Virus record (IMG/VR): IMGVR_UViG_3300043433_000105
Span: 1 to 64,000 of that record
DNA length: 64,000 nt
Source of the DNA: a virus
Lineage: Duplodnaviria; Heunggongvirae; Uroviricota; Caudoviricetes
Strand: one strand, 5' to 3'
The translations under genes were made by a program, and so were the position numbers. Shown here one piece after another: positions 1,753-57,900 of this stretch. Below the pieces are notes generated by a model. It was not told where the DNA came from. It saw only the letters and a program-made list of their open reading frames with translations, and did not search any database. Numbering within the stretch: position 1 is the first letter of the stretch; every line of letters begins with the position of its first letter.

Positions 1753-1753
1753 G

Positions 1754-37510: not shown

Positions 37511-37548
37511 TTCCTTTTGAATTTCGATGAATGAATTATAACACAGTT
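37511..37548 (-). promoter_or_regulatory. early-type promoter/leader cassette
   Basis: Reverse complement TGTTATAATTCATTCATCGAAATTCAAAAGGAAAATT..ATG. Confidence 0.55.
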
Positions 37549-37740
37549 TTAGTTGGAGGTTGCAGGAGTTTCTACACGAGAAATTTCTTCTGGATAACCA
37601 TCGCATTCGTCACAATAACTATAGCCAGAACCAAAGTATGTCCCACCACCTTCTTGCGGATTGACACGAAAGCCATGTGTAGTTTGAATATGACCACACT
37701 CAGTGCATTTGACAGTAGCTAAAATTTTGGTATCTTGCAT
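37549..37740 (-). CDS. zinc-ribbon small protein
   Basis: CTECGH...CDECDG. Confidence 0.35.
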   Translation of the reverse strand: MQDTKILATVKCTECGHIQTTHGFRVNPQEGGGTYFGSGYSYCDECDGYPEEISRVETPATSN

Positions 37741-37778
37741 ACCAACCTCTTATGAAAAAGAAACAAAGTCATGGTATC

Positions 37779-38228
37779 TCAATTCTTGTACAAGATGATT
37801 TTTGGATGAACAATTTGTAGATGATTATTCGGAAGAGTCAGATAACCATCAGGTGTTTTGTATACAAGAAAACCTTGCTGAACAGATTTCCATTCTGGGT
37901 GCTTAGTTGACCCAAAGTTTTTCTGAACCATCTTAGTGTCTAAATCAACCAGTTCGGCAATTACCACTTCATTCTTTGGGGCAGCAGTTTTTACAATAAA
38001 CGACTGATAGAAAACAAAAGAAAGCAGAAGAGAAGCGAGGATCAAATACACACTAAAAACCGGTGAATTTTTTAATGACCAAGAATCTTTTCTCAAGTTT
38101 AAATCTTTTGCATGTTCATCAACAGAAATCATCAAAGAAAGTAGTGTAAACATTAAAAAAATTGCAAGAGCAACGAAGAACCCCGTATGATCTTGGCTCA
38201 AATCTGGTAAAGGTGTAGTGCTATACAT
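37779..38228 (-). CDS. membrane protein (2 predicted TM helices)
   Basis: Hydrophobic stretches FFVALAIFLMFTLLSLMI and VYLILASLLLSFVF. Confidence 0.4.
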   Translation of the reverse strand: MYSTTPLPDLSQDHTGFFVALAIFLMFTLLSLMISVDEHAKDLNLRKDSWSLKNSPVFSVYLILASLLLSFVFYQSFIVKTAAPKNEVVIAELVDLDTKMVQKNFGSTKHPEWKSVQQGFLVYKTPDGYLTLPNNHLQIVHPKIILYKN

Positions 38229-38497
38229 TAGAAACCACCATTTCCACCAAATTGCATTTCAACGAGGCTCTTACGTGGGCGCATGAATTCATTCAAGCGA
38301 GTACGAGCCTCTTGATAACGTTCAACTTCCTCATAAAAGTAGTCGCCAAAACTAGAATTATAATGATATGGGTGTGCTTTATATTTTTCACGCAACTCAT
38401 CAATGTTTTTCTTTTGCGCCAAATAATCATCTAACAGGTCAGTGAATTCCATCTTTTTCATTCTTTCCAAGTTCGTACATAAAAAGCATAGCAGCAA
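38228..38497 (-). CDS. hypothetical protein
   Basis: 89-aa ORF. Confidence 0.35.
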   Translation of the reverse strand: MLLCFLCTNLERMKKMEFTDLLDDYLAQKKNIDELREKYKAHPYHYNSSFGDYFYEEVERYQEARTRLNEFMRPRKSLVEMQFGGNGGF

Positions 38498-38787
38498 AAA
38501 TCTTATCTGTTGTCAGAGGCGGATTCTTTACTGTGATGTTGTTGGCCTGATTATAACACGAAGTCAGCCACTCGCGTATTTCTTTTTCACTCTTGTCCAT
38601 TTTTGATCATCATATCAATCAGTGACAGATCGACCATCAAAGAAGCCAGCTTTTCACGTTGTGGTTCATAAGACACATCCAAAGGCTCCCCACGAATCAT
38701 AGCGAGGTAACCTTGCGCGCATTCGGCTCTAAGTGATTCAATCTCTTTTTCAACCAGAACTTTCCGATCCTTTAGCATAATTTTCCC

Positions 38788-39828
38788 TTAAACAAACAAA
38801 CACTTCAACAATTCGATGCGTTTTTCTTTGATGGCTTTACCTAACAAAGCACCACCCATCATATGAAAATCAGCAGCAGTGACAGTGTTGCACAATTTTA
38901 CTGCGATCTTCAACAACTTCACATCACCTGCGCTGATAACACGCAACATTTCCATGGAAATGACATCTTCAACCAAGCTACTCATGCGGAAAGCATCGAG
39001 TCGCAACAAGGTGTCATATGTAGACTCAGCATTAGAAAAGTTTAGATTCCTGATAGCAGAAGCAAGACGTTTTGCAGTCGCAGAAGGCCAGATTGTTGTT
39101 TTTCCATCACTAGCAACTGCCGAAAGTTGATCTAGGCTATTAACCCAACCCAACCGCACAAAATTGCGACGAGGCAAGGCATTCTTGAAAAAATCTGAGT
39201 TGACAGGGCCAATGAAATCCAACTTGTTGAAAAAGTCATGCAGCAAACAATCATCATCGAGAACCTTTTCAAGTTCACGCCAAAAACGCTCTGCAGGTAG
39301 TTCATTCAAGGCACCGGAGTCGATTACTTCACGTGCGAGTTTGACGGAGTACATAGAGACACCCCAATCATAACGAGCAGCAAAACGAGCCATGCGCAGA
39401 ACACGCAAAGGGTCTTCTTTGAATGCGTCAGACGTAACACGGATAACACCGTCTCGGATGTCTTTCTGACCACCAAATGGATCAATGATTTGACCAGTCT
39501 TCAAATCCTTTGCCATGGCATTACAGGCAAAGTCTCGACGGAAAAGGTCATCTTCGAGAGTCACATCAGCGCCGAATTCACATTCAAAACCAAGGTAACC
39601 AGCACCCACTTTACGCTCACGACGAGCTAATGCATATTCTTCTTTGGTTTCTGGGTGAAGAAACACAGGAAAGTCTGCGCCAACCTGTTCAAACCCCAGA
39701 GAAATCATTTCTTCTGGAGAGGAACCAATCACAACATAGTCGCGATCTTTTGGAGTGGCACTCATGACTTCATCACGGACAGCACCACCAACCAAGTAGA
39801 CATTGAGTTCAGAGATAGATGTTTTCAT
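38788..39828 (-). CDS. tRNA nucleotidyltransferase (class II CCA-adding enzyme / poly(A) polymerase family)
   Basis: YLVGGAVRD head-domain signature, DxD catalytic pair (RDFACNAMA region), RRD motif. Confidence 0.75.
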   Translation of the reverse strand: MKTSISELNVYLVGGAVRDEVMSATPKDRDYVVIGSSPEEMISLGFEQVGADFPVFLHPETKEEYALARRERKVGAGYLGFECEFGADVTLEDDLFRRDFACNAMAKDLKTGQIIDPFGGQKDIRDGVIRVTSDAFKEDPLRVLRMARFAARYDWGVSMYSVKLAREVIDSGALNELPAERFWRELEKVLDDDCLLHDFFNKLDFIGPVNSDFFKNALPRRNFVRLGWVNSLDQLSAVASDGKTTIWPSATAKRLASAIRNLNFSNAESTYDTLLRLDAFRMSSLVEDVISMEMLRVISAGDVKLLKIAVKLCNTVTAADFHMMGGALLGKAIKEKRIELLKCLFV

Positions 39829-39836
39829 AATTTTAA

Positions 39837-40094
39837 TTATACCATCAAAACAAAAACAAGTGTAGAAATAAGAGAACTGATTATCAATGCAATTGGGCTT
39901 GCCAAAAGATTTAAAGTGCTACGATCTTTGACAAAAAGCCATAAAAATTTTTCAATAGGTTTAATCAACACTGGAACGCACATTATAAAAATGAATGCCG
40001 CAACCATAAATGGGAATGCGTATTCTGAATTATTCAATGCCTCATCAATACGCTGTTGAGCAATACTATTGTAGATGATTACGGATTGAGTCAT
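39837..40094 (-). CDS. small membrane protein
   Basis: 85-aa hydrophobic ORF after a promoter cassette. Confidence 0.3.
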   Translation of the reverse strand: MTQSVIIYNSIAQQRIDEALNNSEYAFPFMVAAFIFIMCVPVLIKPIEKFLWLFVKDRSTLNLLASPIALIISSLISTLVFVLMV

Positions 40095-40134
40095 ATGTTT
40101 ACCTTTTGAATTTTGATAAATGAATTATAACAGA

Positions 40135-40509
40135 TTATTTGCCGTACCAGTAAACCATATTAGCCCACTCAGGTTTATTTTTAAATTCGATAGTGTCATT
40201 ACCATCTTCTTCAGTCTTATCCCAATATACATAGTCGCCAACATAATAATGACCTGCATGAAAACAGCACCATTGGCATGTTTCATCTGTTGTTATAGAA
40301 CCACTCAACACCTGCTCTTTGAAGGTACCGATATCAACTAAAGACCCCCAACGAATGGAAGATTTGACAGTCGCTTTAGAAAGTTTTTCTAGCTCGAATA
40401 GATGGTTGTCAGATGCGATTTCGATCATAATTAACCCTAAGTTACTTGTAGATTCGGAAGAGTCGAATTTTTTTATGAGAAACAGCCTCAATACTCTCTG
40501 GATCAACAA
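40135..40509 (-). CDS. hypothetical protein
   Basis: 124-aa ORF after a cassette. Confidence 0.35.
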   Translation of the reverse strand: MLIQRVLRLFLIKKFDSSESTSNLGLIMIEIASDNHLFELEKLSKATVKSSIRWGSLVDIGTFKEQVLSGSITTDETCQWCCFHAGHYYVGDYVYWDKTEEDGNDTIEFKNKPEWANMVYWYGK

Positions 40510-40714
40510 AAATATTAGATTTTGGTAGCTGAGAGCCGTACTTTGTCAGTGCGCCGCTATACGAAAATCCACCTGTTAGTGTAAATTCGTATTTGTCACA
40601 ATAGAAGAAAAAGATGTTTCCGCTTTTCAGAAAAACGCGCACTTTAAATTTTTTGGGGAAGATTTTGTAGCCGAAGAGTTTCATAGTGTTACCTTTTGTG
40701 TTTCGATAAATGAA

Positions 40715-41179
40715 TTATACCGCAACTTTAATTACAGCGGATGGATTTGTGAGTGTGACTTTCTTTTCAAGACCTTCACCTTCGACGGTGAACTTGCGGG
40801 TCATCCAACCACAACCTTGATGATACACATCACCGAGTTTGGTGATCTTCACGAGACAGACAACGTTTTTGATAGCAGCGTAAACTGTGTCACCAACAAA
40901 CAACTCGTTACCGTTCTTGTCGAATGCAACAACGAGGTCTTCGTAGTTGACGAAATCAGCACAGTGCTTCGCAGTAGGAACCATGCAGCCGCCTTTTTCA
41001 GCGTAACCATGACGTTCTTGCTTGAGTCGCAGGTTCAGTTCAGGAATGTAGATTCCGTCACCATATTTTGCAGAATCAACTTCTGTGGATTCGGGAAATG
41101 CTCGTGCGTTGCAACCTTGACCTTCAACAACTTTACCAGCATGTTCACCAGTCTTGATCAAATAACGTTGCTTGTTCAT
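40715..41179 (-). CDS. hypothetical protein
   Basis: 154-aa ORF after a cassette. Confidence 0.4.
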   Translation of the reverse strand: MNKQRYLIKTGEHAGKVVEGQGCNARAFPESTEVDSAKYGDGIYIPELNLRLKQERHGYAEKGGCMVPTAKHCADFVNYEDLVVAFDKNGNELFVGDTVYAAIKNVVCLVKITKLGDVYHQGCGWMTRKFTVEGEGLEKKVTLTNPSAVIKVAV

Positions 41180-41222
41180 ATTGTTACCTTTTGTGTTTCG
41201 ATGACTAGATTATAGCACAGAT

Positions 41223-41513
41223 TTAGAATTTCAAAGGATTATCTGGATTATTTTTATTGTATTCAGATAGCTGTTTTTGTTGTTCTATAAAATCATCAAG
41301 GTCAAAGTCTTTGACTGCCTGTTCTTTCATCATAGCTTCTCTGCGTTCCTTTGCTTTGCGCAATTCTAAAGCAGCATCGAACCTAGAAGCGATTTCTAGT
41401 TCTTCTTTGGTGAATCTGGTGGGGTAGTCAGTAAGACCATACATAAGGCGCACATCAGCTAAGGCACGTGACATGGCTGGAAATTTTGGGAATGTGATGT
41501 ATTGTTCTGGCAT
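41223..41513 (-). CDS. hypothetical protein
   Basis: 96-aa ORF. Confidence 0.35.
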   Translation of the reverse strand: MPEQYITFPKFPAMSRALADVRLMYGLTDYPTRFTKEELEIASRFDAALELRKAKERREAMMKEQAVKDFDLDDFIEQQKQLSEYNKNNPDNPLKF

Positions 41514-41813
41514 TTAAACATCTAAAAAAGTTGTATTCGCTAATCTCACCAAAACATCACCATGGCAACGTTTTGGTCGGCACCAGCAACCCAAAACTTT
41601 CCCTTCTAACTCATGAAGAGATTTGATTAGATCGGGCTGATTTAGTAACCACTGCTCATACTTTTCGATCACATCATCGCGATATCCATCTTTACCTATA
41701 GTAAATGGATTTCCCCATTTACTAGGTCTTCCTATGTAAACATCATAGGCTTCTTCACAGTGATTAACAACTCTTGGCATAATATAAATGTTGGCAGGCT
41801 GGACACAACTCAA
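41514..41813 (-). CDS. DUF4326-like protein (NADAR-related fold, tentative)
   Basis: YDVYIGRPSKWGNPF...LGCWCRPKRCHGDVL pattern typical of DUF4326. Confidence 0.5.
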   Translation of the reverse strand: MSCVQPANIYIMPRVVNHCEEAYDVYIGRPSKWGNPFTIGKDGYRDDVIEKYEQWLLNQPDLIKSLHELEGKVLGCWCRPKRCHGDVLVRLANTTFLDV

Positions 41814-42093
41814 TTAGTCTGCGCTTCGATGTTTAACGCCCTTACGGGTTCCGCAGCACCTTTTAATACCCACCAGGGGAATTTGACCAACAAATAGTGG
41901 TGAAGTTTTTTACATTTCAGTTTTTGTAAAAATTCAACTGCTCGGGGTAAGATTTTGTGGATTCGGTTCGAAGAGTAACAATACCAGAACCATCACACAT
42001 TTCATACTGAACAAATCCTGCCAGAGTTTTTGACTTTCCTACAGCACTTGAGTTGAAGTCGATACGCTTACCACAATTTTTTAAGGAACCGTT

Positions 42094-42912: not shown

Positions 42913-42926
42913 CGTTCCGTTTTGAA

Positions 42927-43196
42927 TTAATCGAACCAAATATCTTTGATCATAGGGATGCACCATGTATCAGGATAGTAGGTCATAGACCTCCATACAC
43001 CATCATGGCCTTTGAGGATATATCCATAGATACGAATACCATCTACTATGAAAATATCTACGAGTTTCATTTGATCACTTTCAACATAATATTCTGGTGG
43101 AGGTAACAGGAATCGAACCTGCGACCTACGACTTTCACTAAAAGATAAATATATGGTACTCACGAAATTAGCCGTTTCCAGTACCTCTAGCCACAT
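42927..43196 (-). CDS. hypothetical protein
   Basis: 89-aa ORF; 3' part overlaps the tRNA fragment. Confidence 0.25.
   Translation of the reverse strand: MWLEVLETANFVSTIYLSFSESRRSQVRFLLPPPEYYVESDQMKLVDIFIVDGIRIYGYILKGHDGVWRSMTYYPDTWCIPMIKDIWFD
43091..43138 (-). pseudogene. tRNA 3' fragment (T-arm + acceptor 3' strand + CCA)
   Basis: Reverse complement GTCGCAGGTTCGATTCCTGTTACCTCCACCA; no matching 5' half is adjacent. Confidence 0.4.
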
Positions 43197-43222
43197 TATA
43201 ACACAATTTCAAAGGAACTGCT

Positions 43223-44093
43223 ATGACCAGCAAAACTATTTATACATGCAAATTTTGCACCAAAACATTCACAACATTATTAGGTTTAAACGGTCATGCT
43301 AGAATGCATGGTAAATCTAATGGTAAAACAACATATCCCATTAGGGTTTGCTGTTTTTATACACGCAAAGTTGTTAGTGCTTCAAAATTAGAATCTTATC
43401 AACAAACATTATTAGGGTCAACATGCGGTGTTCATCCTTGTGACGGATGCGGCAATTTTATTTCAGATAGAACAAAATACTGCTCTGCGTCTTGTAGTGC
43501 GGCAATAACAAACAAAGATTACCTAAATCTCAAGAAACCAAAAACAAGATTTCACAAACTTTAAAAAACAAGCCTAAGAAATTAAAACCATTTGAGTTTA
43601 AACCAGTAAAAATAAAGAAAACTGATATTCTTGGACAATTCTCTAAACTTTTTCATTGCAAATGCTCACACTGCGGTGTTCTAAGTATAACACGAATAGC
43701 AAAGAAGTATTGTGAAACTTGCTCACCAATTTATTGTACAGAGCCAAGAAACAGATATAAATTTACATTCAATGTTTACAAATATCCCGACATTTTCGAC
43801 TTAGAACTTTTAACAAAAGTTGGTTTTTATGCACCAAGAGGTAAATCAGGCAGTTGGAATCCCAATGGGCTTTCCCGCGATCATAAAGTATCAGTCAATG
43901 ACGCACTGAAAAATAATTATGAACCATTTTACATTACACATCCATTAAATTGTGAATTAATGCCGCATCAACAAAATAACAAGAAAAAGAGTAAATCTTC
44001 AATTTCGTACTCAGAACTTGTTAAAATGGTTGATGACTATCAAAACACATTGCTCCAAGCCGAGGCATCGAACCTCGCCTAGAATTCCTTCCA
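43223..44093 (+). pseudogene. zinc-finger HNH homing endonuclease paralog 2, frameshifted
   Basis: ORF stops at 43564 in an A6 tract (cTTTAAAAAAc); the -1 frame continues through NGLSRDHKVSVNDALKNNYEPFYITHPLNCELM to 44093. Confidence 0.55.
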
Positions 44094-44834: not shown

Positions 44835-45017
44835 TTACTTCTCAATTTTAACACAGCGCATGCTAGATGCATTACCATGTTTACCTTCAGTATCTTTTAT
44901 GAAGTCAACGATTGCTACCTTACACTTTTGTTCGCTCGAAAACTCAAGCGTTGGAACTACGTAGTTCCCAAAGTGACCATTTGAAACAACTGCGATTAAT
45001 ACCCATACTGTGTTCAT
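44835..45017 (-). CDS. hypothetical small protein
   Basis: Downstream of the cassette at 45018-45060. Confidence 0.3.
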   Translation of the reverse strand: MNTVWVLIAVVSNGHFGNYVVPTLEFSSEQKCKVAIVDFIKDTEGKHGNASSMRCVKIEK

Positions 45018-45081
45018 ACTTATTTACCTTTCGTTTTCGATGACTTAATTATAACACACAAATACTAACAAAACAACATTT

Positions 45082-45255: not shown

Positions 45256-45582
45256 ATTATATTTCGAAGTTGACAACTTAACCGCAATCTCTCTCAACTT
45301 CTAGAACTGGCTTCAAGCGGTCTAACCATCCAGTTCTTTTTATTCTTTGAACGAATACACGGCGTTATTTGAGATCAAACCCATAACTTTTGTCGTTCAG
45401 CCAACTCTTTCCGCTATTGTTTGCTTTCATTACCCTACTGAACCGACTTCCTTTCGTAAACGTCACATCCAGCCACAGTTGAAATTATCGCCCGTACTTA
45501 GATATGAAGACCAGTTCTTTGCGCTCTGGCTCGGTTTCCATCTACTCTACTACTAACAAACAACTTAGTATTTCTACATTAT

Positions 45583-45658
45583 AACACAATTCTGGTGGGG
45601 CTGGATGGATTTGAACCACCGACGCGCAGAGCTTCAATCTGCCGCTCTACCAACTGAG
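45583..45658 (-). tRNA. tRNA-Phe (GAA)
   Basis: GGGGCTGtaGCTCAGTTGGTAGAGCgGCAGAttGAAgcTCTGCgcgtcGGTGGttcaaatCCATCCAGCCCCacca. Confidence 0.75.
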
Positions 45659-45742: not shown

Positions 45743-45837
45743 CTAAAGACCCGTATTAGGACAAGATTCGCACTTGATAGAAGTCATTATACACCACTTC
45801 TGGTGTTTCTGCGGGATAATCTATCCGCGCCGAACTT

Positions 45838-46202: not shown

Positions 46203-46376
46203 ACAAAGAATTCTAAAATGGTCTCGGTAGAAGTGCTCGAAACTTCCCCTCATGCTCCCAAAGCACGTGCGCCGCCATCAACGCTTTACCGAGATTTAAT
46301 TATATCACACTTTTATAGAGTGTCAACTATTTATGCGTATCCAGAACCTTCGTTCATTTCAAATCCTTAAAATTTG

Positions 46377-46407
46377 TGGCAGGCCGTGTAGGATTCGAAC
46401 CTACGAC
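46377..46407 (-). pseudogene. tRNA 3' fragment (T-arm + acceptor 3' + CCA)
   Basis: Reverse complement GTAGGTTCGAATCCTACACGGCCTGCCA, fused to the same 90-bp block that precedes HNH paralogs 2 and 3. Confidence 0.35.
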
Positions 46408-46497
46408 TTTCACTAAAAGATAAATATATGGTACTCACGAAATTAGCCGTTTCCAGTACCTCTAGCCACATTATAACACAATTTCAAAGGAACTGCT

Positions 46498-47070
46498 ATG
46501 ACCAGCACAACTATTTACTCTTCACCAAAATGCTCTTGCGTAATATGCAAGAAAGAATACTCATCAAAGGGTATAAATTCTCATTTCTTATCTGAACATG
46601 GTACAGATGAAGAAAAGTTCAAAATGAGAAAAGGTGCAAAACTCGGAATGGAAGCAAACAACAAAATTAGAAAAGTTAAAGCAGCTTCCAAATTAGAGAA
46701 ACATACATACAACTACAATCTCTCGCCTAATTTTTGTAAACAATGTAATTGTAAAATTCCATTCAGTAAAAAATCAAATACATTCTGCTCAAAATCATGT
46801 TCCGCAACTTTCAAGAATTTATCAGAGGGTGCCAAAACAGAAGATTGCAAATTAAAAATATCCAAAAAGTTAACTGGTCGTAAAAGTACACATAAACGTG
46901 AAAAAATTTACGAGGGGCCATATACTCGTCTGGTTGGTTATTTCAGTGGCTCATGTGCAACAATTCTCAAGGGTGCTACCCTGTTGCTTCCTCAACCCGC
47001 GAAGGTTGATTTGCTGATTTTCTGGTTCTCTTTATACCGCACTGATACAAGCATTCCAGAAGACTTTTGA
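46498..47070 (+). CDS. zinc-finger HNH homing-endonuclease paralog 3 (C-terminally truncated/degenerate)
   Basis: N-terminus MTSTTIYSSPKCSCVICKKEY paralogous to 42094 and 43223; lacks the DH...N HNH tail. Confidence 0.45.
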   Translation: MTSTTIYSSPKCSCVICKKEYSSKGINSHFLSEHGTDEEKFKMRKGAKLGMEANNKIRKVKAASKLEKHTYNYNLSPNFCKQCNCKIPFSKKSNTFCSKSCSATFKNLSEGAKTEDCKLKISKKLTGRKSTHKREKIYEGPYTRLVGYFSGSCATILKGATLLLPQPAKVDLLIFWFSLYRTDTSIPEDF

Positions 47071-47750
47071 ATTCCAGTTCTTATTGATGCCCTTCTAAGA
47101 ACTGTAAATGTCACAACATGCCTTTGTCCGACTCTTTAAAGGCACAAGTCAGTCAGTTTTCCTGACTACAAGAATCCTCATACGAGAATCCTCTAACTTG
47201 CGTCTGACCTTGAGACATAAAATAATCAGCCATGCCAACTATTTGATCATCTTGTATCAGAATGGCTACTCCTAAGCCTACCTCCAACAGTAATTTCTAA
47301 AGAACTATTCAGCAATCAACTCGATCATTAATTGCTGTTGTGCTTATTATAGCACAGATTTAAAACTTATTCATCACGTTGAAAATGTAACACGTAAAAG
47401 AATACTGCGATTAGTGCCGAAACGGTTTGGTTAAAAACATCAACACTTGAAATAGGGCTTTCAATAACATGATCAAAAAACAATTTCGTAATAAAGCCTG
47501 CCAAAGAATAGCAGATAGCAAACCCAATAAAAGTTTTCCATTTTTGTTGCATATATTATCCTTGTTTAAACTGGCAACCATCACGACCCATCAGAACTGC
47601 ACGATTAATGCAGTTATAGATAGCACTCTTCATTGCCTTTGTCCCACCACTAATCAGTGCATCAAAGATTTCTATCATGCACTCATCAACGAATTGCTTA
47701 AACGTTCCATCGTATTTCATAGCGAACCTATTTTGTTTTCGATGTGCTTA

Positions 47751-48545
47751 TTATAGCATGGTTTTGGTGTGATAGTCAAACAAGGCATTAAAAACTGATT
47801 TGATATCATGATCATAAAAGCCTGAACTGTTAATGTTGTTAAATTCCAACACTTTAACTTCGTCATCGACCAAAGCAGTATCCATTACCACACAATCACA
47901 TGGTAACCATACATCAGCCAATCTTTGCGCTTCTTCAATCACTGCAGTGTCTAATTCCTGCTGTAAATTCATTTGATCATGGGCACGGTACATTGACCCA
48001 GATATGACTTTACCACCAACAATGAACCAACGCCACTCGGCCTGAATAGTCTTTGGGGTATTGATCACGATATCAGTTTCCGGTGCCATGTAATAGCTAC
48101 CTGGGCCACTTTCCATCATCGACTTAAACCATTCAATGATTTCCTTTGGCTCCATTACGGTACCAGAAAATTGCTTATCATCAAGGCTAGGTCGAATGAA
48201 GTATTCTTTATGCCAACGATCTTGATTGTTTTCAAGAAAAAATACCAACTCTTTTGCCGTTTGAATTTGATCATTCACCATATCAGAACGGTGTTCGACA
48301 AAGTTGTGATAATTCAACTTGGTAAGGTCATGATGCAAACCTTTCCATCCTCTTTTAGCTGCAACCCGAGCCAATAGGTTAGAACCGTAGGGAATATAGT
48401 TTAAACCTCCCAGGTCTTCGTTTGCCGCGATTTCTTCGGTAAATGGTATAGCACCTACCCAAACAACGGGAAGATGGCCTGTAGCCCTTCTAATCTTTTC
48501 AAGCGACTGAGCGTTAATGAGGTTGTGTTGGATTACGAATTTCAT
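47751..48545 (-). CDS. ATP-grasp fold enzyme
   Basis: FIRPSLDDKQFSGTV, EWRWFIVGGKVISGSMY, DEVKVLEFNNINSSGFY (ATP-grasp C-terminal E-x-N motif). Confidence 0.6.
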   Translation of the reverse strand: MKFVIQHNLINAQSLEKIRRATGHLPVVWVGAIPFTEEIAANEDLGGLNYIPYGSNLLARVAAKRGWKGLHHDLTKLNYHNFVEHRSDMVNDQIQTAKELVFFLENNQDRWHKEYFIRPSLDDKQFSGTVMEPKEIIEWFKSMMESGPGSYYMAPETDIVINTPKTIQAEWRWFIVGGKVISGSMYRAHDQMNLQQELDTAVIEEAQRLADVWLPCDCVVMDTALVDDEVKVLEFNNINSSGFYDHDIKSVFNALFDYHTKTML

Positions 48546-50081: not shown

Positions 50082-50453
50082 TTAAGCCACCACATTGTAA
50101 GGTTTATCCCAAGAACCGATGTTGATATCAATGTAGTGACCACAATCAAAATAGTCTGTCTGTACATCGCTATTGTCATAGTTACCTACATTCATGGCAG
50201 CAACCAACTCTTTCAGAAAGAAATATGTTTCACCTTGGTGATTGTCTTTCAGATAGTAGGGGTTGATGCTAATTTTTTCACAACCTTGACAGTCTTTTGT
50301 TTCACCCATCACATCCAACTTACCGGATTTGATGTTCACAACGAGAGTGGAATTATGGCGAACTGCAATAGTGCCCTTCATGTTGTACTTCTTCAGTACA
50401 GCTTTGATAGCAGGAGACATAGCAGCTTTTTGTTGTTGAGACATGTAGGCCAT
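50082..50453 (-). CDS. hypothetical protein
   Basis: 123-aa ORF after the cassette at 50461-50500. Confidence 0.4.
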   Translation of the reverse strand: MAYMSQQQKAAMSPAIKAVLKKYNMKGTIAVRHNSTLVVNIKSGKLDVMGETKDCQGCEKISINPYYLKDNHQGETYFFLKELVAAMNVGNYDNSDVQTDYFDCGHYIDINIGSWDKPYNVVA

Positions 50454-50460
50454 AATTCGT

Positions 50461-50500
50461 TACCTCGTTTGTGTTTCGATGAATGAATTATAACATAGAT
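50461..50500 (-). promoter_or_regulatory. early-type promoter/leader cassette
   Basis: Reverse complement ATCTATGTTATAATTCATTCATCGAAACACAAACGAGGTAA. Confidence 0.55.
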
Positions 50501-50534
50501 TTTCTCTTTTACACAAAAAAAAATCTAAAAATAT

Positions 50535-51736: not shown

Positions 51737-51970
51737 TCACAGTTTTTGAATCTTGTACATAGCCAGTGATTTACCACCTAACAATTCTAGCTTATGTGCG
51801 TTACGATCATTGGTCGCATCGACATTCAGGTTCAACCAAGGAACCATCTTACCAGATGCATTTTTACCAATTCTAACATGACTCACAGTAGCAGTCAACA
51901 CACCACAATTACTTTGGTAAGAGATACGATCACCACCGTTCAATTGTGCATAAGAAGTAATGTGTGTCAT
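51737..51970 (-). CDS. hypothetical small protein
   Basis: After the cassette at 51981-52020. Confidence 0.3.
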   Translation of the reverse strand: MTHITSYAQLNGGDRISYQSNCGVLTATVSHVRIGKNASGKMVPWLNLNVDATNDRNAHKLELLGGKSLAMYKIQKL

Positions 51971-52082
51971 GTTTAAACCTTTTTGAATTTCGATGGTTAG
52001 ATTATATCACTGTTTTATTCAACTTTGCTCGTTTTGTGTTTGACGCACCAACAAATGATTTGTTAAGAGGTGTCATTGCTAA

Positions 52083-52376
52083 TTATTTCCAATCACTGGC
52101 AACGTAGGTTTCTTGATTCACTTGCAGAGGAAACTGAAAATAACCGTTTTGATCCAAGTGACCATACCCAGCAGTAGTTGAACCACAAATTCCTGTAGAG
52201 AAATCTGGTTTCACGCCGCTATTGAACTTGTCAGAAGCGATAGCCCGACGAACCTTCAGTGCTGCGTTATCGACTGTCTGTTTCAGCGTAACAGTTCCAA
52301 CAGCAGGCGCAGTACGAATCAAGGTACTCTGAATTCGCAAGATTTCTTCGCACAGTGTAATTTCCAGATCAGTCAT
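52083..52376 (-). CDS. hypothetical protein
   Basis: After the cassette at 52381-52420. Confidence 0.35.
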   Translation of the reverse strand: MTDLEITLCEEILRIQSTLIRTAPAVGTVTLKQTVDNAALKVRRAIASDKFNSGVKPDFSTGICGSTTAGYGHLDQNGYFQFPLQVNQETYVASDWK

Positions 52377-52380
52377 AATT

Positions 52381-52420
52381 TACCTCGTTTGAATTTCGAT
52401 GAATGAATTATATCACACTT
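52381..52420 (-). promoter_or_regulatory. early-type promoter/leader cassette
   Basis: Reverse complement GTGTGATATAATTCATTCATCGAAATTCAAACGAGGTAA. Confidence 0.55.
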
Positions 52421-52429
52421 TTTACTGAA

Positions 52430-52642
52430 TTACTTCTTTTTACCAATCTTAGCAACAACTTCAGCTTTAGACTGCAGCAACTGGCATAGAAAATGTCGGT
52501 ATGTGCGCAAGCAACCCTCCGTGTGTTTTGTTTGCTCACCACTTTCAAGCATTGCAATCTTAGCTTCCAACTCTTTCTGTTGCGCACGATGCCGTTCGAT
52601 GTCTGCGTTAAGTGGAACATCTTTCCAGAAGAATTTAGTCAT
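52430..52642 (-). CDS. hypothetical small protein
   Basis: After the cassette at 52651-52690. Confidence 0.3.
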   Translation of the reverse strand: MTKFFWKDVPLNADIERHRAQQKELEAKIAMLESGEQTKHTEGCLRTYRHFLCQLLQSKAEVVAKIGKKK

Positions 52643-52771
52643 TTTGATTACCTCTTTTGTTTTTCGATGATTGAATTATAGCACAGTTTGTATGAAGTTT
52701 TGGAATCGAACCAAAAATTTGTTGCCAATCAGTGACGCCTTTTTCTGATATCGAGGGCAACAGCTTAACCT

Positions 52772-53098
52772 TTAGCTGACTTCATTCTTTTCTTTCCATT
52801 GTGACCAGATTATATCTGCTTCTTCCTTTAATTCTTGATTCAATTTTTTTCTTCTCACATATGCATTGATGCTTTTTTCAAATTTTTCCATCAATTCTTC
52901 AGGAGAAATTCTGCCACAGAAAACTTCCGATGAACTATATGCATCTATTACTTTACTTGTTCTTCGTGTCCACCACTTCAAAAATGGAACAGTTTTTACA
53001 ATACGCACCTCACCATAAAAATCTGGCTCCAATACCATATCATAGTATTGATCATCTTCTTTACAGTAAACATGCATTACTTGATTATATGCGTTCAT
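52772..53098 (-). CDS. hypothetical protein
   Basis: 108-aa ORF. Confidence 0.35.
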   Translation of the reverse strand: MNAYNQVMHVYCKEDDQYYDMVLEPDFYGEVRIVKTVPFLKWWTRRTSKVIDAYSSSEVFCGRISPEELMEKFEKSINAYVRRKKLNQELKEEADIIWSQWKEKNEVS

Positions 53099-53592: not shown

Positions 53593-53639
53593 CAGACCGT
53601 GTAGAAGACGGTAATTCTATCCAATTGAATTATGGTCGC
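53563..53639 (-). tRNA. tRNA-Arg (UCU)
   Basis: GCGACCAtaATTCaattggataGAATtACCGTctTCTacACGGTctgttGGGGGttcgaatCCCTCTGGTCGCacca. Confidence 0.75.
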
Positions 53640-53647
53640 AAAAATGT

Positions 53648-53977
53648 TTATTCGTTATCCAAATACTCAGTCATGAACATCAAGAAAAACCAACGAGCTT
53701 CTTGGCGACGTTCAGGTTCGATATGCTTCCAGGTGTTCATACCAAAGGATGTCATACCAAATAGACGCATCTCTTCTTTCAAGATATTCTCATTTTTATA
53801 GCTACCTGCAACATGATATAGACAGTCGCAAATATATGGTGATGAAAAGTTAGTGGAATTTTTAGCGACTACGACAAATTCATTTTGGTGCGGGTGCAAT
53901 GTGCCTTCGCACCACTCCAAAATAAGAATTTCAGTAGCTACATTGAAAAATGCATCAGCTTTTTCGGAGTTTTTCAT
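53648..53977 (-). CDS. hypothetical protein
   Basis: 109-aa ORF after the cassette at 53985-54030. Confidence 0.35.
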   Translation of the reverse strand: MKNSEKADAFFNVATEILILEWCEGTLHPHQNEFVVVAKNSTNFSSPYICDCLYHVAGSYKNENILKEEMRLFGMTSFGMNTWKHIEPERRQEARWFFLMFMTEYLDNE

Positions 53978-54134
53978 TTTAAGTTTCTTTTGTATTTTGA
54001 CAACTTGATTATACCACTAACTTACGCGAGTAAGTGCATCAATGAGCAAAATGATTCCAATAAAAGGGTGATCATTACAAATAAGATAGATCGCGAAAGT
54101 AAACTCAAGCAAAGGCATAAAATTCCTACATTAA

Positions 54135-54224
54135 GTGGCGGGGTGTGTGAGATTCGAACTCACGGAGCCATTTCTGACTCAGTTGCTTTCAAGGCAACCG
54201 CAATAGACCACTCTACCAACACCC
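54135..54224 (-). tRNA. tRNA-Ser (UGA), type II
   Basis: Acceptor GGGGTGT/ACACCCC, anticodon arm GTTGC-CTTGAAA-GCAAC, long variable arm, T-arm GTGAG-TTCGAAT-CTCAC, CCA. Confidence 0.7.
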
Positions 54225-54356
54225 CAATTTGATTCTTGATTCGATGTTGTCTGCCCACAACACCAGGAGAAAAAACGAGAAAGAAAAATCAAGAATCAAA
54301 AATGGTCGGGACTTCTCGCACCCGCAGAATCAACAATGTAACTCTTGATCTGAGTT

Positions 54357-54395
54357 GTTCGGGCGCTACCCGACTTGCTCTTTTTTTTGTTGATA
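54357..54395 (+). terminator. plus-strand hairpin followed by T8
   Basis: GTTCGGGcgctaCCCGAc-ttgctc-TTTTTTTT. Confidence 0.3.
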
Positions 54396-54624
54396 GGATT
54401 CGAACATACACAAGCACCGGCTTACAGGAGGGCTACTTTAAGGTGGTAAACACCGCTATCCCACTATTATCCAACCAGTAGGGTATACCAATTCCCCTTC
54501 ACAACAAAAATAAGTGAACCCTTTGCAACTGCACATCCTGAGAAGGAATTTATCGACTTTGCCAGCAGTTTTCTTGCAATTCAACGTCATGTCTCTGTTA
54601 CTTAGACGTTTAGGGTTGCAAACT

Positions 54625-54699
54625 TGGTTTACTCGGATAGTTTCGATCTACCGACCTCCCCATTAAAAGTAGGGTGCTCTTCCACTGAGCTACGAGTAA
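54625..54699 (-). tRNA. tRNA-Lys (UUU)
   Basis: Acceptor TTACTCG/CGAGTAA, D-arm GCTCAGTGGAAGAGC, anticodon CCCTA-CTTTTAA-TGGGG, T-arm GGTAG-ATCGAAA-CTATC, CCA. Confidence 0.65.
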
Positions 54700-54706
54700 G
54701 TATTCT

Positions 54707-54952
54707 TCAATCAAAACGGATGGTAGAACCTTTAAACCATCCAGAACAGACAACACCGGTCACTGTTTTACCGGATGGGCTTTTAGCTTTGAATCCATCA
54801 GAAAAACTGTCGTTTTTATCACAACCAAACATACTATATCCAGTCATTTGGATTTCAGTGTAACCATTTTCGTTCAATACACGTTCTGCTTTACTTGTAT
54901 TTGTGCATGCACTCAAAATTACAACTGCAGCGATGACCAATAACTTTTTCAT
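54707..54952 (-). CDS. lipoprotein
   Basis: MKKLLVIAAVVILSAC lipobox; start trimmed to internal Met. Confidence 0.45.
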   Translation of the reverse strand: MKKLLVIAAVVILSACTNTSKAERVLNENGYTEIQMTGYSMFGCDKNDSFSDGFKAKSPSGKTVTGVVCSGWFKGSTIRFD

Positions 54953-55120
54953 AATAACCTCAAAAAATAAATGGTAATGGATCAGCACCTACCTTGCGAC
55001 CTTATTTCGACAAACTACAAAATTTTCATTTTGCCACATCGTGCTACTTAAAGCATTTTCGCATCGTACCCTATGATTCCCCATTACCCCCGAGTGTGGT
55101 TCGGGTTTAAACCTAAAATA

Positions 55121-55351
55121 ATCATTGCCGGTATCCAAGGATTTGAACCTCGAATCCATTCTACCCCCAGCACCGTTCGGATTCCTGTTAAGCGGGATTG
55201 GTATTTATCCCGACTTCGTTTCATAAGATAACACTCTTATGTCACTACTGCCCTATTCTCCGATGCCTTGTTAGGTAAATTGTCCTCTTAGACCACAATA
55301 TCAGTTCTTTCTACTGACTCTGTTTTATTAAAGGCAGATACCGGCAATGAC
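55121..55351 (-). ncRNA. tRNA-like structured element bounded by perfect 14-bp inverted repeats
   Basis: TCATTGCCGGTATC ... GATACCGGCAATGA; contains a canonical T-arm (CGAGG-TTCAAAT-CCTTG) but no foldable anticodon or D arms. Confidence 0.3.
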
Positions 55352-55377
55352 CACTTAACTCTATTGTAACACAAATT

Positions 55378-55465
55378 TGCCAGAGTGGATTCGAACCACC
55401 AAATATCTTTCGATATTTTTTGCAGGGCTTTCACCTGCGACTCTACCTCATTTCGTCCACTAGCA
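55378..55465 (-). ncRNA. tRNA-like RNA with T-arm and long hairpin, non-canonical
   Basis: T-arm GGTGG-TTCGAAT-CCACT; hairpin AAATATC-GAAAG-ATATTT; no acceptor pairing found. Confidence 0.25.
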
Positions 55466-55480
55466 AAACTTTATATATGA

Positions 55481-55567
55481 GAGCCAACTGAGATTCGAAC
55501 TCAGGACTACACAACCAAATCATATTTCTGGTTGACCTACCGACTTGCCGTTACGTGCGATTGGCTC
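55481..55567 (-). ncRNA. tRNA-like RNA (type-II length) with perfect acceptor and T-arm but non-canonical body
   Basis: Acceptor GAGCCAA/TTGGCTC, T-arm CTGAG-TTCGAAT-CTCAG, 8-bp hairpin CAACCAGA/TTTGGTTG with loop AATATGA lacking U33. Confidence 0.35.
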
Positions 55568-55590
55568 TCATATATAAACTGTTCGACCAT

Positions 55591-55737
55591 ATGTAGGGGG
55601 ATTCGAACCCACCGCTGTGCCCGCCTTAAACCAACTTGGCTACACCTCCATTACGGAAGTGGTAGGATTCGAACCTACGAATGGGCACGTGCTAACCAAC
55701 TACACTATACTAGGTCTAGGAGTAATTACTTCCTATT
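55591..55737 (-). ncRNA. two adjacent tRNA-like units lacking anticodon arms
   Basis: Unit A: GGAGGTGtaGCCaagttggtttaaGGC fused to T-arm GGTTCGAATCC. Unit B: D-arm TAGTGTAGTTGGTTAGCAC followed 10 nt later by T-arm GTAGGTTCGAATCCTAC. Confidence 0.3.
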
Positions 55738-55890
55738 GTAAAACAAAATTCGTCAACTTTGTATCACATGTAAGAATTATATCACATTTTTCTTACATGT
55801 GGGAACTATTTCTAATTCCTCATCAAGTTCTCAACTGTCACGGCTTTCTGTTGAGAATCCTACGCAGATAGCTCTTGCTACCTTGTCCGA

Positions 55891-55930
55891 ACCATTCGAT
55901 GTGTGTAGGATGACTTAATTATAGCACACT
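55891..55930 (-). promoter_or_regulatory. early-type promoter cassette positioned to transcribe the tRNA-like array (no ORF downstream)
   Basis: Reverse complement AAAAGTGTGCTATAATTAAGTCATCCTACACACATCGAATGG. Confidence 0.45.
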
Positions 55931-55931
55931 T

Positions 55932-56288
55932 TTAATTCCAAGAAGACAAATCAGCTTGCATTTGTCGAATTCTTTTCAAGGCATCTGTATTTCTAGGTGA
56001 AATTTCATTTGCCAAGATATGCAACTCATGAATTATATCCGAATACAAGTAAGACATCAAACCATTTCTCGCTAAAGTATGGTTAGGGTTATCTCCTGTA
56101 GGAAACTGACCTGTAGCAAAAATTCTCAACTCATGTTTATATCTATCAACATATGGCGCATCATAAGATGGCTTTAGATGCTCCATACCATATTCAACTT
56201 GAATGAACTGTGGTGAAAACTCGCGAGTTGCGGTTTTATCTGTTCGAAGTTCTTTCTTGATCTTCAATTCCATTTTAGATTTGCACAA
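55932..56288 (-). CDS. hypothetical protein
   Basis: 118-aa ORF. Confidence 0.35.
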   Translation of the reverse strand: MCKSKMELKIKKELRTDKTATREFSPQFIQVEYGMEHLKPSYDAPYVDRYKHELRIFATGQFPTGDNPNHTLARNGLMSYLYSDIIHELHILANEISPRNTDALKRIRQMQADLSSWN

Positions 56289-56778
56289 TCTTCAAAACTT
56301 CGCCAGTTTCTGGGTTAATAGTGACTTCCACATTAGAAACGCCATCATCATACCATGTAAGGTATGGCTTGCCACTTGAAACACTGGGTAAATTATATGC
56401 GATTCGACGCTTCATAGTAATAGGCGAAACTTCTTTTGGTTTTACACGATACACACCCTTAACACCCCAACCTGGATTTTTATTCTCTTTCCACAGTTTT
56501 GTGCGCGAATCAAGCTGCTCAATTACAGCACCATTTGCCCACTGAACAATCAAATCAGCATGAGTATGCTTTTTATTTTTTTGTGCCACAATTTGACCTC
56601 TGTAAAGTTCAAAGTTTGAAGAAAACCAAGCCCCAGCAGTATCTTTCAAATACAGTAAGGTACCATGGTCAGTGCATCGCTCAACTGTATATACATTACC
56701 GACGCGCATAACGTTGGTATCAACATTACCATCGACATCAACTGTGCGAACAACTTTATCACCTGCTTTGAATTTCAT
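56275..56778 (-). CDS. hypothetical protein
   Basis: 167-aa ORF. Confidence 0.4.
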   Translation of the reverse strand: MKFKAGDKVVRTVDVDGNVDTNVMRVGNVYTVERCTDHGTLLYLKDTAGAWFSSNFELYRGQIVAQKNKKHTHADLIVQWANGAVIEQLDSRTKLWKENKNPGWGVKGVYRVKPKEVSPITMKRRIAYNLPSVSSGKPYLTWYDDGVSNVEVTINPETGEVLKIVQI

Positions 56779-56796
56779 AGTTTTTCCTTTATGTTT

Positions 56797-56869
56797 TGGA
56801 GGCGCATACCGGAATCGAACCGGGTCTTAGGATTTGCAATCAGTGACCTAAACTTTCTGCCAATGCGCC
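56797..56869 (-). tRNA. short tRNA-like gene (anticodon region contains GCA; Cys?)
   Basis: Acceptor GGCGCAT/ATGCGCC, T-loop TTCGATT, CCA; anticodon arm could not be folded confidently. Confidence 0.4.
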
Positions 56870-56875
56870 TTAATA

Positions 56876-56962
56876 TGGTGGGTGTGGATAGGATTCGAAC
56901 CTACATTAGTGATGTACTCACAACTGCGTCACTCGCAGCCCCGATTCTCCAAGTAATTGTAC
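56876..56962 (-). ncRNA. tRNA-like RNA with T-arm and CCA but no acceptor pairing
   Basis: GTAGG-TTCGAAT-CCTAT...CACACCCACCA; 5' region has a CTGCG-AGTGA-CGCAG hairpin. Confidence 0.3.
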
Positions 56963-56997
56963 ATTTTACACATCGAGAAGCACACCCATATTTCATT

Positions 56998-57074
56998 TGG
57001 TGCGGCTAGGTGGATTCGAACCTCCAAACAACAGATTTTAAGTCTGTTTGCGTTACCTATTAGCATACAGCCGC
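56998..57074 (-). tRNA. class-I (short variable loop) tRNA with UAA anticodon (Leu-type reading UUA/UUG)
   Basis: Acceptor GCGGCTG/TAGCCGC, D-stem TGC/GCA, anticodon arm ACAGA-CTTAAAA-TCTGT (perfect), 5-nt variable loop, T-loop TTCGAAT, CCA. Confidence 0.6.
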
Positions 57075-57800
57075 TATTTTTTCTAAAATCCCTTCTATTG
57101 TAAACGATTTTTTATCATTGGCCCATAGTATAACACATCTGGTGCTATATTCAAACTCAAATTGTTCAATTTTTTTAAGTTGAGATTCTTGTTTCGCATA
57201 TCCTTGATAGGTTGTGGTAGGTTTTCCTTTCCATTTTGCTTTCGGATCAAGGTAAACATCAAATTTAGGCAAATAAAAATCTGGTTGATATGTTCGATTA
57301 TCAGATAACAAAATTTGATTTGGATGCATCCATTGAATATTATTTCTATCTAATAAATTCGCAACTTGCCATTCATGTATAGATTCGAGATTGAATACAT
57401 TTCCAAAACTATCAATATATGGTATATAATTTCTTTTCCATCGCAAAACCGGGTCAATTGCAACTCCTGCTCTAGCGGCTTTCCACAAACCATTTTCAAA
57501 AGATTTTTTATGATTTGCAACCTGTCGCCTTGTAGGTTCATAATTTTCTGTAGTTTTACCTTTATTATGTTTCATTCTATCTTTAGAATCTTGAGACATA
57601 GACTCATAAACAGATTTTGCATCACGACCCGACTTATAAGTTTCCTTACACTTTTCACTGTTCTTTTTTTTATTTGCAGGACAAGAAGCGTGTGATTCGC
57701 AACACATTAATCTGTCACTGCTGTTTTTAAACAATGCTAAATTCCCACATCCATAGTCACACAATTTATCAGTTACTATAGGCTCAGATTTTTTTCTCAT
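57060..57800 (-). CDS. Cys-rich protein, possible nuclease/homing-endonuclease-like
   Basis: N-terminal CDYGCGN...CCESHASCP zinc-binding cluster; basic C-terminal region; assignment tentative. Confidence 0.3.
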   Translation of the reverse strand: MRKKSEPIVTDKLCDYGCGNLALFKNSSDRLMCCESHASCPANKKKNSEKCKETYKSGRDAKSVYESMSQDSKDRMKHNKGKTTENYEPTRRQVANHKKSFENGLWKAARAGVAIDPVLRWKRNYIPYIDSFGNVFNLESIHEWQVANLLDRNNIQWMHPNQILLSDNRTYQPDFYLPKFDVYLDPKAKWKGKPTTTYQGYAKQESQLKKIEQFEFEYSTRCVILWANDKKSFTIEGILEKIAAVC

Positions 57801-57870
57801 ACATGTACTCCAAAAGGTTATACATGTATTTAATGATTTCTGAATTTCACCAGTGCGTCTACCTATTTCG

Positions 57871-57900
57871 CCACTCTCGCATAACTTGATTATAGCACAG
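57871..57900 (-). promoter_or_regulatory. promoter cassette fused to a tRNA-Leu 5' fragment
   Basis: GCGAGAGTGGCGAAATAGGTAGACGCACTGG (copy of the 5' half of the tRNA at 50617-50698) directly upstream of TTGATTATAGCACAG. Confidence 0.4.

Follow-up and report, generated by a model that had tools for sequence, protein, structure and literature searches.

A minimal promoter-leader cassette repeated across a lineage of uncultured phages

Introduction

In T4-type phages, promoter early stem-loops (PeSLs) combine an AT-rich tract, a stem-loop terminator, -35 and -10 boxes, a Shine-Dalgarno (SD) sequence, and an ATG, and they occupy hyperplastic regions and the junctions of insertions and deletions (indels; PMC2839356, PMC4122927). 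All described early consensus sequences of T4-like phages keep a -35 box (GTTTAC or TTGACA) and an A-rich UP element (PMC1524935, PMC2988021). The pair formed by TGn and the -10 box defines a further class of sigma70 promoter, sufficient by itself and insensitive to AsiA-type anti-sigma factors (PMC2988021). Here, we describe a repeated promoter-leader unit in a 64,000-nt stretch of viral DNA (positions 1 to 64,000 of IMG/VR record IMGVR_UViG_3300043433_000105; hereafter, the window), whose source is, judged by its proteins, an uncultured, deep-branching T4-like myophage. The repeat is a genuine, lineage-wide, minimal promoter-leader cassette. As the window covers only part of the phage genome, the absence of a gene from it carries correspondingly limited weight.

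Results

A recurring unit of promoter, leader, and start codon

An initial annotation had proposed that more than 20 copies of a promoter-plus-leader cassette drive each small open reading frame (ORF) of the hyperplastic region. The motif is indeed present where it had been placed, far above chance: TCATTCATCGAAAT matches nine times in the window at up to two mismatches (1.19 expected), CATCGAAAT seven times (0.93 expected), and TGnTATAAT 26 times, compared with 3.75 expected and a maximum of eight after shuffling. An unbiased repeat finder run without prior input recovers the same family as its repeats D1, D3, D4, D5, and D11. Moreover, a 45-column position weight matrix (PWM), built from the cassette copies and run over both strands of the window, yields 14 sites at 28-58 bits, followed by the next best at 14 bits and all others at 8 bits or less.

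These 14 sites are full cassettes consisting of promoter, leader, SD, and ATG (Table 1), and about 12 further sites share the extended -10 promoter alone, in front of tRNAs, other RNAs, or leaderless ATGs. A count above 20 is therefore reached only if promoter-only sites are included. Among the 19 sites initially annotated, 14 are full cassettes, whereas 47335, 55891, 57871, 43190, and 46450 are promoter-only sites without the conserved leader; the last two had been taken for plus-strand copies and are actually a minus-strand promoter within a 119-nt duplicate. Nor does a cassette stand before each small ORF: between 36 and 58 kb, 11 cassettes face about 45 minus-strand ORFs, approximately one per four. 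Eleven of the 14 cassettes lie at 37.5-54 kb, among tRNAs and ORFs of 54-154 aa that mostly have no family match.

Alignment of the copies confirms that conservation runs from the -10 hexamer via the leader to the SD. The consensus opens with an A-rich stretch, cTGTGnTATAAT, and TCATTCA, and reads in full AAAnnTGTGnTATAAT-TnAnTCA-TCGAAAnnCAAAAG, then G(T)AA, 3-7 nt, and ATG, the leader and SD part being TCGAAAywCAAAAGG(T)AA. Two subtypes, ATTCAAAAGG and ACACAAAAGG, can be distinguished. The distance from hexamer to ATG is 27-33 nt in all 14 cassettes, and the ORF that follows measures 54-154 aa in 13 of them and 22 aa in the remaining one (9692). This last cassette (9678-9797) is well formed and sits immediately past the terminase stop codon at a convergent gene junction; together with its 22-aa ORF, it represents either a micro-ORF unit or the remnant of a lost module.

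Table 1. Positions of full cassettes, promoter-only sites, and leaderless-type sites in the window. "Relative" denotes the 198-kb contig introduced below.
Type	Span	Strand	TATAAT	ATG	Downstream	PWM (bits)	Remarks
Full cassette	1713..1762	+	1727	1760	65-aa ORF	42	sole copy with a terminator-like hairpin just upstream (AAAAAGGCCCTACGAGGCCTTTTT), -17.6 kcal/mol
Full cassette	2146..2200	+	2160	2198	146-aa ORF	50	ortholog of its gene in the relative (L072) likewise cassette-driven
Full cassette	9678..9731	+	9692	9729	22-aa ORF	45	
Full cassette	37501..37554	-	37540	37503	66-aa ORF	58	orthologous cassette at L007 12090
Full cassette	40092..40143	-	40129	40094	85-aa ORF	46	left end of a module missing from the relative
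Full cassette	40682..40733	-	40719	40684	80-aa ORF	48	
Full cassette	41177..41228	-	41214	41179	154-aa ORF	52	
Full cassette	45015..45067	-	45053	45017	60-aa ORF	38	within the tRNA cluster
Full cassette	47718..47769	-	47755	47720	54-aa ORF	28	ortholog in the third lineage (L102) cassette-driven too
Full cassette	50451..50506	-	50492	50453	123-aa ORF (phrog_10415)	53	near-identical orthologous cassette in the relative; upstream flanks unrelated
Full cassette	51968..52020	-	52006	51970	77-aa ORF	46	orthologous cassettes in the relative and L102
Full cassette	52374..52426	-	52412	52376	97-aa ORF	52	window-specific insertion
Full cassette	52640..52694	-	52680	52642	70-aa ORF	52	ortholog at position 4577 of the relative
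Full cassette	53975..54027	-	54013	53977	109-aa ORF	39	degenerate, weak SD
Promoter-only	43188..43214	-			RNA with tRNA-like 3' end		TGTGTTATAAT; in the 119-nt duplicate
Promoter-only	46463..46489	-					second copy of the 119-nt duplicated unit
Promoter-only	46292..46318	-			directly before tRNA-Pro, Gln, Trp		full TTGACA-N16-TGATATAAT
Promoter-only	45779..45805	-			tRNA-Val and tRNA-Phe		
Promoter-only	45571..45597	-			conserved non-coding stretch, 45.26-45.58 kb		
Promoter-only	47339..47365	-					initially placed at 47335; synteny of the relative picks up exactly at its upstream edge
Promoter-only	55769..55795	-	55781				-10 bracketed by a perfect 12-nt inverted repeat, CACATGTAAGAA ... TTCTTACATGTG (55755-55800)
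Promoter-only	55911..55937	-	55923		conserved structured RNA		initially placed at 55891
Promoter-only	57882..57908	-	57894		directly before a tRNA-like 5' half		initially placed at 57871
Leaderless-type	39826..39855	-	39841		N7, then ATG of the CCA-adding enzyme (PolyA_pol family)		right end of the 85-aa ORF module
Leaderless-type	33911..33940	-			N7, then ATG of a 90-aa ORF		

The promoter half and its upstream context

The -10 box is a perfect TATAAT in all 14 cassettes and is directly preceded by TGn at -15 to -13 in 11 of them, as expected for the extended -10 class, to which the TRTG "-16 region" of Gram-positive promoters also belongs. Upstream of about -22, the 14 window copies and 22 copies from the relative hold no information content, that is, neither a -35 box nor an UP element, and matches to a canonical -35/N16-18/-10 arrangement occur in the region at chance level (48 versus 51 expected). 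A canonical -35/-10 promoter is thus ruled out. In nine of the 14 copies, the preceding ORF terminates inside the hexamer or no more than 18 nt away from it, which puts the -35 position into coding sequence; at 40719 and 47755, the upstream stop is the TAA of TATAAT itself. Because the upstream gene covers the -35 position so often and its stop codon twice falls within TATAAT, the cassette appears as a self-contained, context-independent plug of about 50 bp, and its promoter would, as judged from the sequence, function independently of a -35 box.

A conserved stem-loop just upstream of each copy had been envisaged as a further test of the PeSL comparison. By folding, such a hairpin is present at one of the 14 cassettes and missing from 13, the mean upstream folding energy being -8.3 kcal/mol compared with -8.9 kcal/mol for controls, and the region holds no more terminator-like sites than chance predicts (13 versus 13.6 expected). 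Upstream folding and terminator scan together rule out strict PeSL identity.

The resemblance to PeSLs (Arbiol et al, 2010, PMC2839356; Comeau et al, 2014, PMC4122927) suggested by the initial annotation nevertheless stands in part. Both are repeated composite intergenic elements of hyperplastic regions, here a setting of tRNAs and ORFans; both fuse a promoter with a -10 box to the SD and start codon of a small ORF; and both stand at insertion, deletion, and replacement junctions, with crossovers in RB49 also falling between the -10 box and the ATG. In contrast to PeSLs, the cassettes have no stem-loop terminator (13 of 14), no conserved -35 box at N17 from the -10, and no AT-rich upstream tract, they are shorter (about 50 bp versus about 70 bp), and their conservation is strongest in the transcribed leader. 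Excised mini-circles, formed when neighbouring copies recombine, are a further mark of PeSLs. Consequently, with a hairpin in only one of 14 copies, the cassettes behave like PeSLs yet are not strict members of that class.

With the early promoters of T4 and T4-like phages ("uber" UP/-35/TGn/-10 promoters; PMC2988021, PMC1524935), the cassettes share a sigma70-type -10 box with TGn, a position before ORFans and tRNAs, and the phage background, but they lack -35 and UP information and add a conserved leader. With the extended -10 class they have TGTGnTATAAT and the missing need for a -35 box in common (PMC2988021); that class, however, is defined by promoter elements alone and includes no fixed 5' untranslated region (UTR).

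One promoter half joined to three downstream halves

The same promoter half (A-rich/TGTGnTATAAT) is joined to three different downstream halves: some copies continue into the standard leader, others into an ATG without a leader, and others into the initial base of a tRNA or other RNA. Since promoter-only and leaderless copies share this upstream half, the leader is not needed for promoter use. At both leaderless-type genes, TATAAT-N7-ATG without an SD is conserved in the relative (rel_merged 16173 and 19699), and the CCA-enzyme gene of a third lineage has a spacing of N6 (L137, ~115-132). The mRNAs of the CCA-adding enzyme and of the 90-aa ORF are therefore probable candidates for leaderless transcripts, as far as their geometry tells. 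The same TATAAT-N7-ATG geometry points to a start site about 7 nt after the hexamer, where an A is conserved in 13 of the 14 cassettes.

Several RNA features accompany the promoter-only sites. The 119-nt unit is a near-exact duplicate (D6; 43124-43242 and 46399-46517) that holds the minus-strand TGTGTTATAAT promoter along with the 5' portion of an RNA whose tRNA-like 3' end is called by neither ARAGORN nor Rfam. Both copies abut plus-strand paralogous ORFs (42094, 43223, and 46498) that are alike at their N-termini; ORFs 42094 and 43223 have sub-threshold matches to C2H2 zinc fingers, and ORF 46498 has no family match. Downstream of promoter 45583, the minus-strand non-coding stretch 45260-45580 within the tRNA cluster is 77% conserved with the relative and may be a stable small RNA akin to RNAs C and D of T4. 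The putative minus-strand RNAs behind 55923 (55585-55923; TCCTACACACATCGAATGG...GCGTAGGA) and 57894 (57800-57894; GCGAGAGTGGCGAAATAGGTAGACGC) are conserved and structured or tRNA-like. Further, tRNA-like 3' ends without a tRNA call are seen at 55599-55623 and 55665-55689, and Rfam does not confirm the "tRNA-Phe(aaa)" that ARAGORN places at 55375-55467. The inverted repeat around 55781 looks like an operator or a promoter-occluding hairpin.

A conserved, unstructured leader at protein-coding units

The conserved leader block occupies the stretch 10-25 nt before the AUG and ends ahead of the SD, which takes the form AAAGGTAA or GAGGTAA in the cassettes, compared with AAGGAA as the general form in this phage; the spacer between SD and AUG is variable. 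The predicted folding free energy of the leader is near 0, which marks it as unstructured, and start regions of cassette genes fold less stably than those of other genes (-2.7 versus -6.2 kcal/mol; Mann-Whitney p=0.001). The leader word ATCGAAAnnCAAA has 18 matches in the window, 12 of them in cassettes, and the other six compare with 3.5 expected. A motif that acts alone or as an antisense target is rejected, as there is no excess away from the promoter. The standard leader is seen only at leadered protein-coding units; because of this confinement, its role most likely concerns translation or mRNA fate.

Conservation of the cassette in relatives

IMG/VR was searched by an exact 19-mer scan and a degenerate scan, and a metagenome scan was added separately. 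The cassette was found in three contigs of one sample, 3300022468_000772 (198 kb), 3300022468_000539, and 3300022468_000934, and also in L002 and L003, the latter a 14.8-kb IMG/VR contig with 99% identity to positions 1-12366 of the window. The sections L007 and L060 of the 198-kb contig are syntenic with the 57-25-kb part of the window, and their orthologous proteins share 41-92% identity. This relative holds at least 22 non-redundant cassettes, which have the consensus of the window copies and fall into the two subtypes seen there (ATTCAAAAGG and ACACAAAAGG). The metagenome scan revealed a third lineage with cassettes (Ga0181346 contigs L102 and L137; proteins ~50-65% identical), in which cassettes again drive the genes orthologous to the 77-aa and 54-aa ORFs despite a different gene order. 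Orthologous cassettes keep the consensus positions and differ at the variable ones.

Beyond these lineages, 17 other, more distant T4-like viral contigs with the CCA-enzyme gene lack the cassette. Deposited phage genomes yield only marginal single matches to the cassette query (E>=0.07) and no near DNA-level match for the region, and species-representative bacterial genomes yield 16 single matches at chance level, which give no clue to the host. The sole return of an exact-protein contig look-up was a 5-kb contig from the same phage.

Cassettes at indel and replacement junctions

When the window is compared with the relative, two clean promoter-to-promoter footprints emerge. In the first, the window carries the 85-aa ORF and its leader between the hexamers 40129 and 39841, where L007 has a single promoter; the upstream flank of this lone promoter matches that of 40129, and its downstream flank, with the ATG of the CCA enzyme, matches that of 39841. 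In the second, the relative has an extra leader and small ORF between the promoters at its positions 1026 and 1217, and both of its flanks align to the single window promoter 55923.

Additional events involve the same element. Window positions 52437-52080, a cassette with its 97-aa ORF, are inserted between ORFs that overlap by ATGA in the relative, and the relative has an additional cassette with ORF between tRNA-Leu and its ortholog of the 50492 cassette. Homology with the relative stops at the cassette ATG for 41214 and 54013, with other genes downstream, and at 47755 it stops within the hexamer to resume at the upstream edge of promoter 47351.

At the strain level, the single indel in 12 kb between L003 and the window is a homing-endonuclease gene, not a cassette event. 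It is a 1.1-kb insertion (L003 8148-9326 versus window 6775-6855) that encodes a 356-aa GIY-YIG homing endonuclease on the opposite strand, between a 160-aa ORF and the gp32-like gene. Next to the insertion, the coding end has diverged, consistent with a co-conversion tract.

Discussion

We consider it probable, though well short of certain, that the cassette is a host-sigma70-type extended -10 early promoter without a -35 box, fused to a standard unstructured leader, and that it acts as a module for both expression and recombination. In such a module, the A-rich, TGTGnTATAAT promoter stands at a fixed distance from a 21-27-nt A-rich 5' UTR (AUCGAAAywCAAAAGG(U)AA) ending in SD and ATG. Host RNA polymerase would start about 7 nt past the hexamer, at the conserved A, and could use the promoter immediately after infection, without phage factors, while the uniform leader would offer any downstream ORF an open and efficient site for ribosome loading. 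The near-identical copies would moreover serve as short homology patches at which phages acquire, lose, and exchange modules of cassette and ORF, as has been proposed for PeSLs, here minus the terminator stem-loop.

Several points weigh against this interpretation. TGn is non-canonical in three of the 14 cassettes, reading TTGTATAAT at 1727 and 2160 and CGGTATAAT at 40719. An open leader alone needs no fixed TCGAAA or CAAAAG, and a protein, an RNase, the ribosome, or RNA polymerase may contact these words. We infer start site, timing, and translation of the cassettes from sequence, and the identity of the consensus across phages could partly stem from cassette exchange between co-infecting phages instead of selection at each site. 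Finally, a -10 hexamer is found within 45 nt for 15 of the 40 ends of indel junctions, compared with 18% expected for random positions (p=0.003), but random positions make a generous null, since junctions can fall only at gene boundaries, ~40% of which carry a promoter here, and against an intergenic-only null the signal would be much weaker. The two promoter-to-promoter footprints are stronger evidence than this statistic.

The leader block might alternatively be the operator of a dedicated post-transcriptional regulator with coordinate control over all cassette mRNAs, such as a RegA-type repressor, an endoribonuclease, or a factor marking early mRNAs, to which the promoter is merely attached; we regard this as unlikely. 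As the conservation of TCGAAA and CAAAAG, kept in three lineages, exceeds what an unstructured, A-rich leader needs, a sequence-specific reader is conceivable. The confinement of the leader to protein-coding units would suit such a reader, and a homologue of the translational repressor RegA is encoded at 30784-31179 on the minus strand (E=1e-35). T4-type RegA sites, however, overlap the AUG, and the T4 site obtained by systematic evolution of ligands by exponential enrichment (SELEX), AAAAUUGUUAUGUAA, is AU-rich, whereas the block described here ends before the SD and is followed by a variable spacer. The start region of regA itself (GAUUUUAUUAUGUCA, without an SD) resembles the T4 RegA site; the leader does not. 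A RegA operator is thus rejected on both position and sequence. Among the 40 small ORFs (batch Pfam scan) and the cassette-driven ORFs (PHROGs) of this partial genome, no RegB-like or other RNA-binding family was found, and the rest of the window contains no antisense match to the leader. The suggestion in the initial annotation that an RNA-binding regulator or endoribonuclease acts on the leader thus gains no support. With a similarly low probability, AUCGAAA..CAAAAG at the 5' end of about 12 early mRNAs per 64 kb is a tag for a phage or host factor. If true, this factor could set the timing of the entire ORFan regulon or shut it off, the tag could be a mark that spares early mRNAs from phage-induced decay or a guide for ribosomes, and the leader would mark out a new post-transcriptional regulon among T4-like phages.

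Another possibility, which we hold to be quite improbable, is that positions +1 to +17 act at the level of DNA or transcription, either as an optimised discriminator and initial transcribed sequence that speeds promoter escape, like that of strong T5 promoters, or as a start-site operator for a phage repressor that shuts off early transcription. The block does stand at a fixed distance from the -10 box and has no occurrence without a promoter beyond chance, promoters without a -35 box may need additional downstream information, and a similar start region, TATAAT-TCATTCATC, lies upstream of gene 31 in Aeromonas phage 44RR. However, the same upstream half precedes unrelated sequence at tRNAs and leaderless ATGs, showing that the promoter can do without the block; an operator for general shut-off should also be present at promoter-only sites, and the discriminator itself is only semi-conserved among cassettes.

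We see very little room for the idea that the similarity is historical, resulting from duplicative spread, gene conversion, and inter-phage exchange with no selection on the leader. While the cassettes are recombination junctions and copies at orthologous positions can be chimeric or of the other subtype (41214 in the window versus 9233 in L007), the consensus and both subtypes persist at 41-92% and ~50-65% protein identity, where the immediate intergenic flanks are unalignable, and the variable positions drift, so that homogenisation is incomplete.

That the cassettes are middle or late promoters read by a phage-modified polymerase or a phage sigma factor is hardly credible: T4 middle promoters likewise often have TGn and no -35 box (PMC2988021), but no conserved MotA-type box stands near -30 across the cassette copies, neither MotA nor AsiA was found by the Pfam and PHROGs comparisons of the partial genome named above, the hexamer is a perfect sigma70 TATAAT and not the T4 late TATAAATA, and the sites precede tRNAs and ORFans, as do early promoters of other T4-like phages (PMC1524935). 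With one match in the whole window versus 3.5 expected, TATAAATA is essentially absent, which rules out a T4 late promoter at the cassettes; late promoters of this lineage probably follow a different consensus.

Conservation that continues past +1 is also a property of strong T5 early promoters (PN25) and of T7 promoters, and we take the start-site context of the cassettes (ATTCAT...AAATT) to be broadly similar to PN25. T5 promoters have a -35 box, however, T7 promoters are read by a phage RNA polymerase, and we know of no common SD-containing leader repeated before many genes in either group. Morons of lambdoid phages are promoter-gene-terminator units. The cassette with ORF at 52437-52080 resembles them as an autonomous promoter and ORF inserted between neighbouring genes, but cassette units lack terminators and all share one standard promoter-leader sequence.

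Outside these phages, the region most like a cassette lies upstream of gene 31 in Aeromonas phage 44RR2.8t (NC_005135; TATAAT-TCATTCATCAACTCAAAGAGGTAAATATG) and reaches only 9 bits on the cassette matrix. There, a hairpin is followed by TATAAT-TCATTCATC...CAAAGAGGTAAATATG, with a start context, SD, and spacing like those of the cassettes but without the GAAAywCAAAAG block, and 50 kb of the 44RR genome contain no cassette.

These findings do not overturn current understanding. They extend promoter cassettes as linkers of modular shuffling to a deep-branching, uncultured lineage that is T4-like by its proteins, and they indicate that the linker role requires neither the terminator stem-loop nor the -35 box, leaving a TGn/-10 promoter with a standard leader as the smallest self-sufficient unit. 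The three downstream formats on one promoter half amount to a natural experiment on the contribution of the 5' UTR. Moreover, the cassette may serve as a marker for early genes and module boundaries in this phage group and as a compact candidate part for expression design.

Other features of the window

The assignment of the phage draws on a gp17-type large terminase, at most 50% identical to the versions of cyanophage BUCT-ZZ01 and Caulobacter phage Cr30, and on further T4-type proteins encoded in the window: a DnaB/gp41-like helicase, a gp32-like single-stranded DNA-binding protein, a split DNA polymerase, RegA, the gp44 and gp62 clamp-loader subunits, and DsbA. Eighteen tRNA genes lie on the minus strand at 36.7-57.1 kb. 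Beside the RegA region, the minus strand encodes the DsbA homologue (29798-30082) and a NADAR-domain protein (31627-32085), the latter between gp44 and gp62.

An Rfam scan of the window returned only tRNAs and one group I intron and no family at the cassettes. The intron (25670-25881, minus strand; RF00028, 76 bits) lies in the region of the split DNA polymerase. On the opposite strand near this region, the plus-strand ORF 34095-34940 has a clear GIY-YIG domain, and ORF 28858-29820 (plus strand), with a sub-threshold GIY-YIG match, resembles a homing endonuclease; for ORF 26264-27196 (plus strand, no family match), position and strand are what suggest the same.

A TET-associated glycosyltransferase is encoded at 35531-36415 on the minus strand (Pfam TAGT, E=7e-53), which suggests hypermodified cytosines in the phage DNA; neither a methyltransferase nor a TET gene was seen in the window. 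This gene prompted the idea that TCGA at the start site is a modification motif, which was dropped because TCGA occurs at 1.05x expectation, neither depleted nor enriched. Finally, the ORF at 20081-21289 (402 aa, no known family) contains five in-frame repeats of 66-74 nt (family D2; 20453-21102, minus strand).

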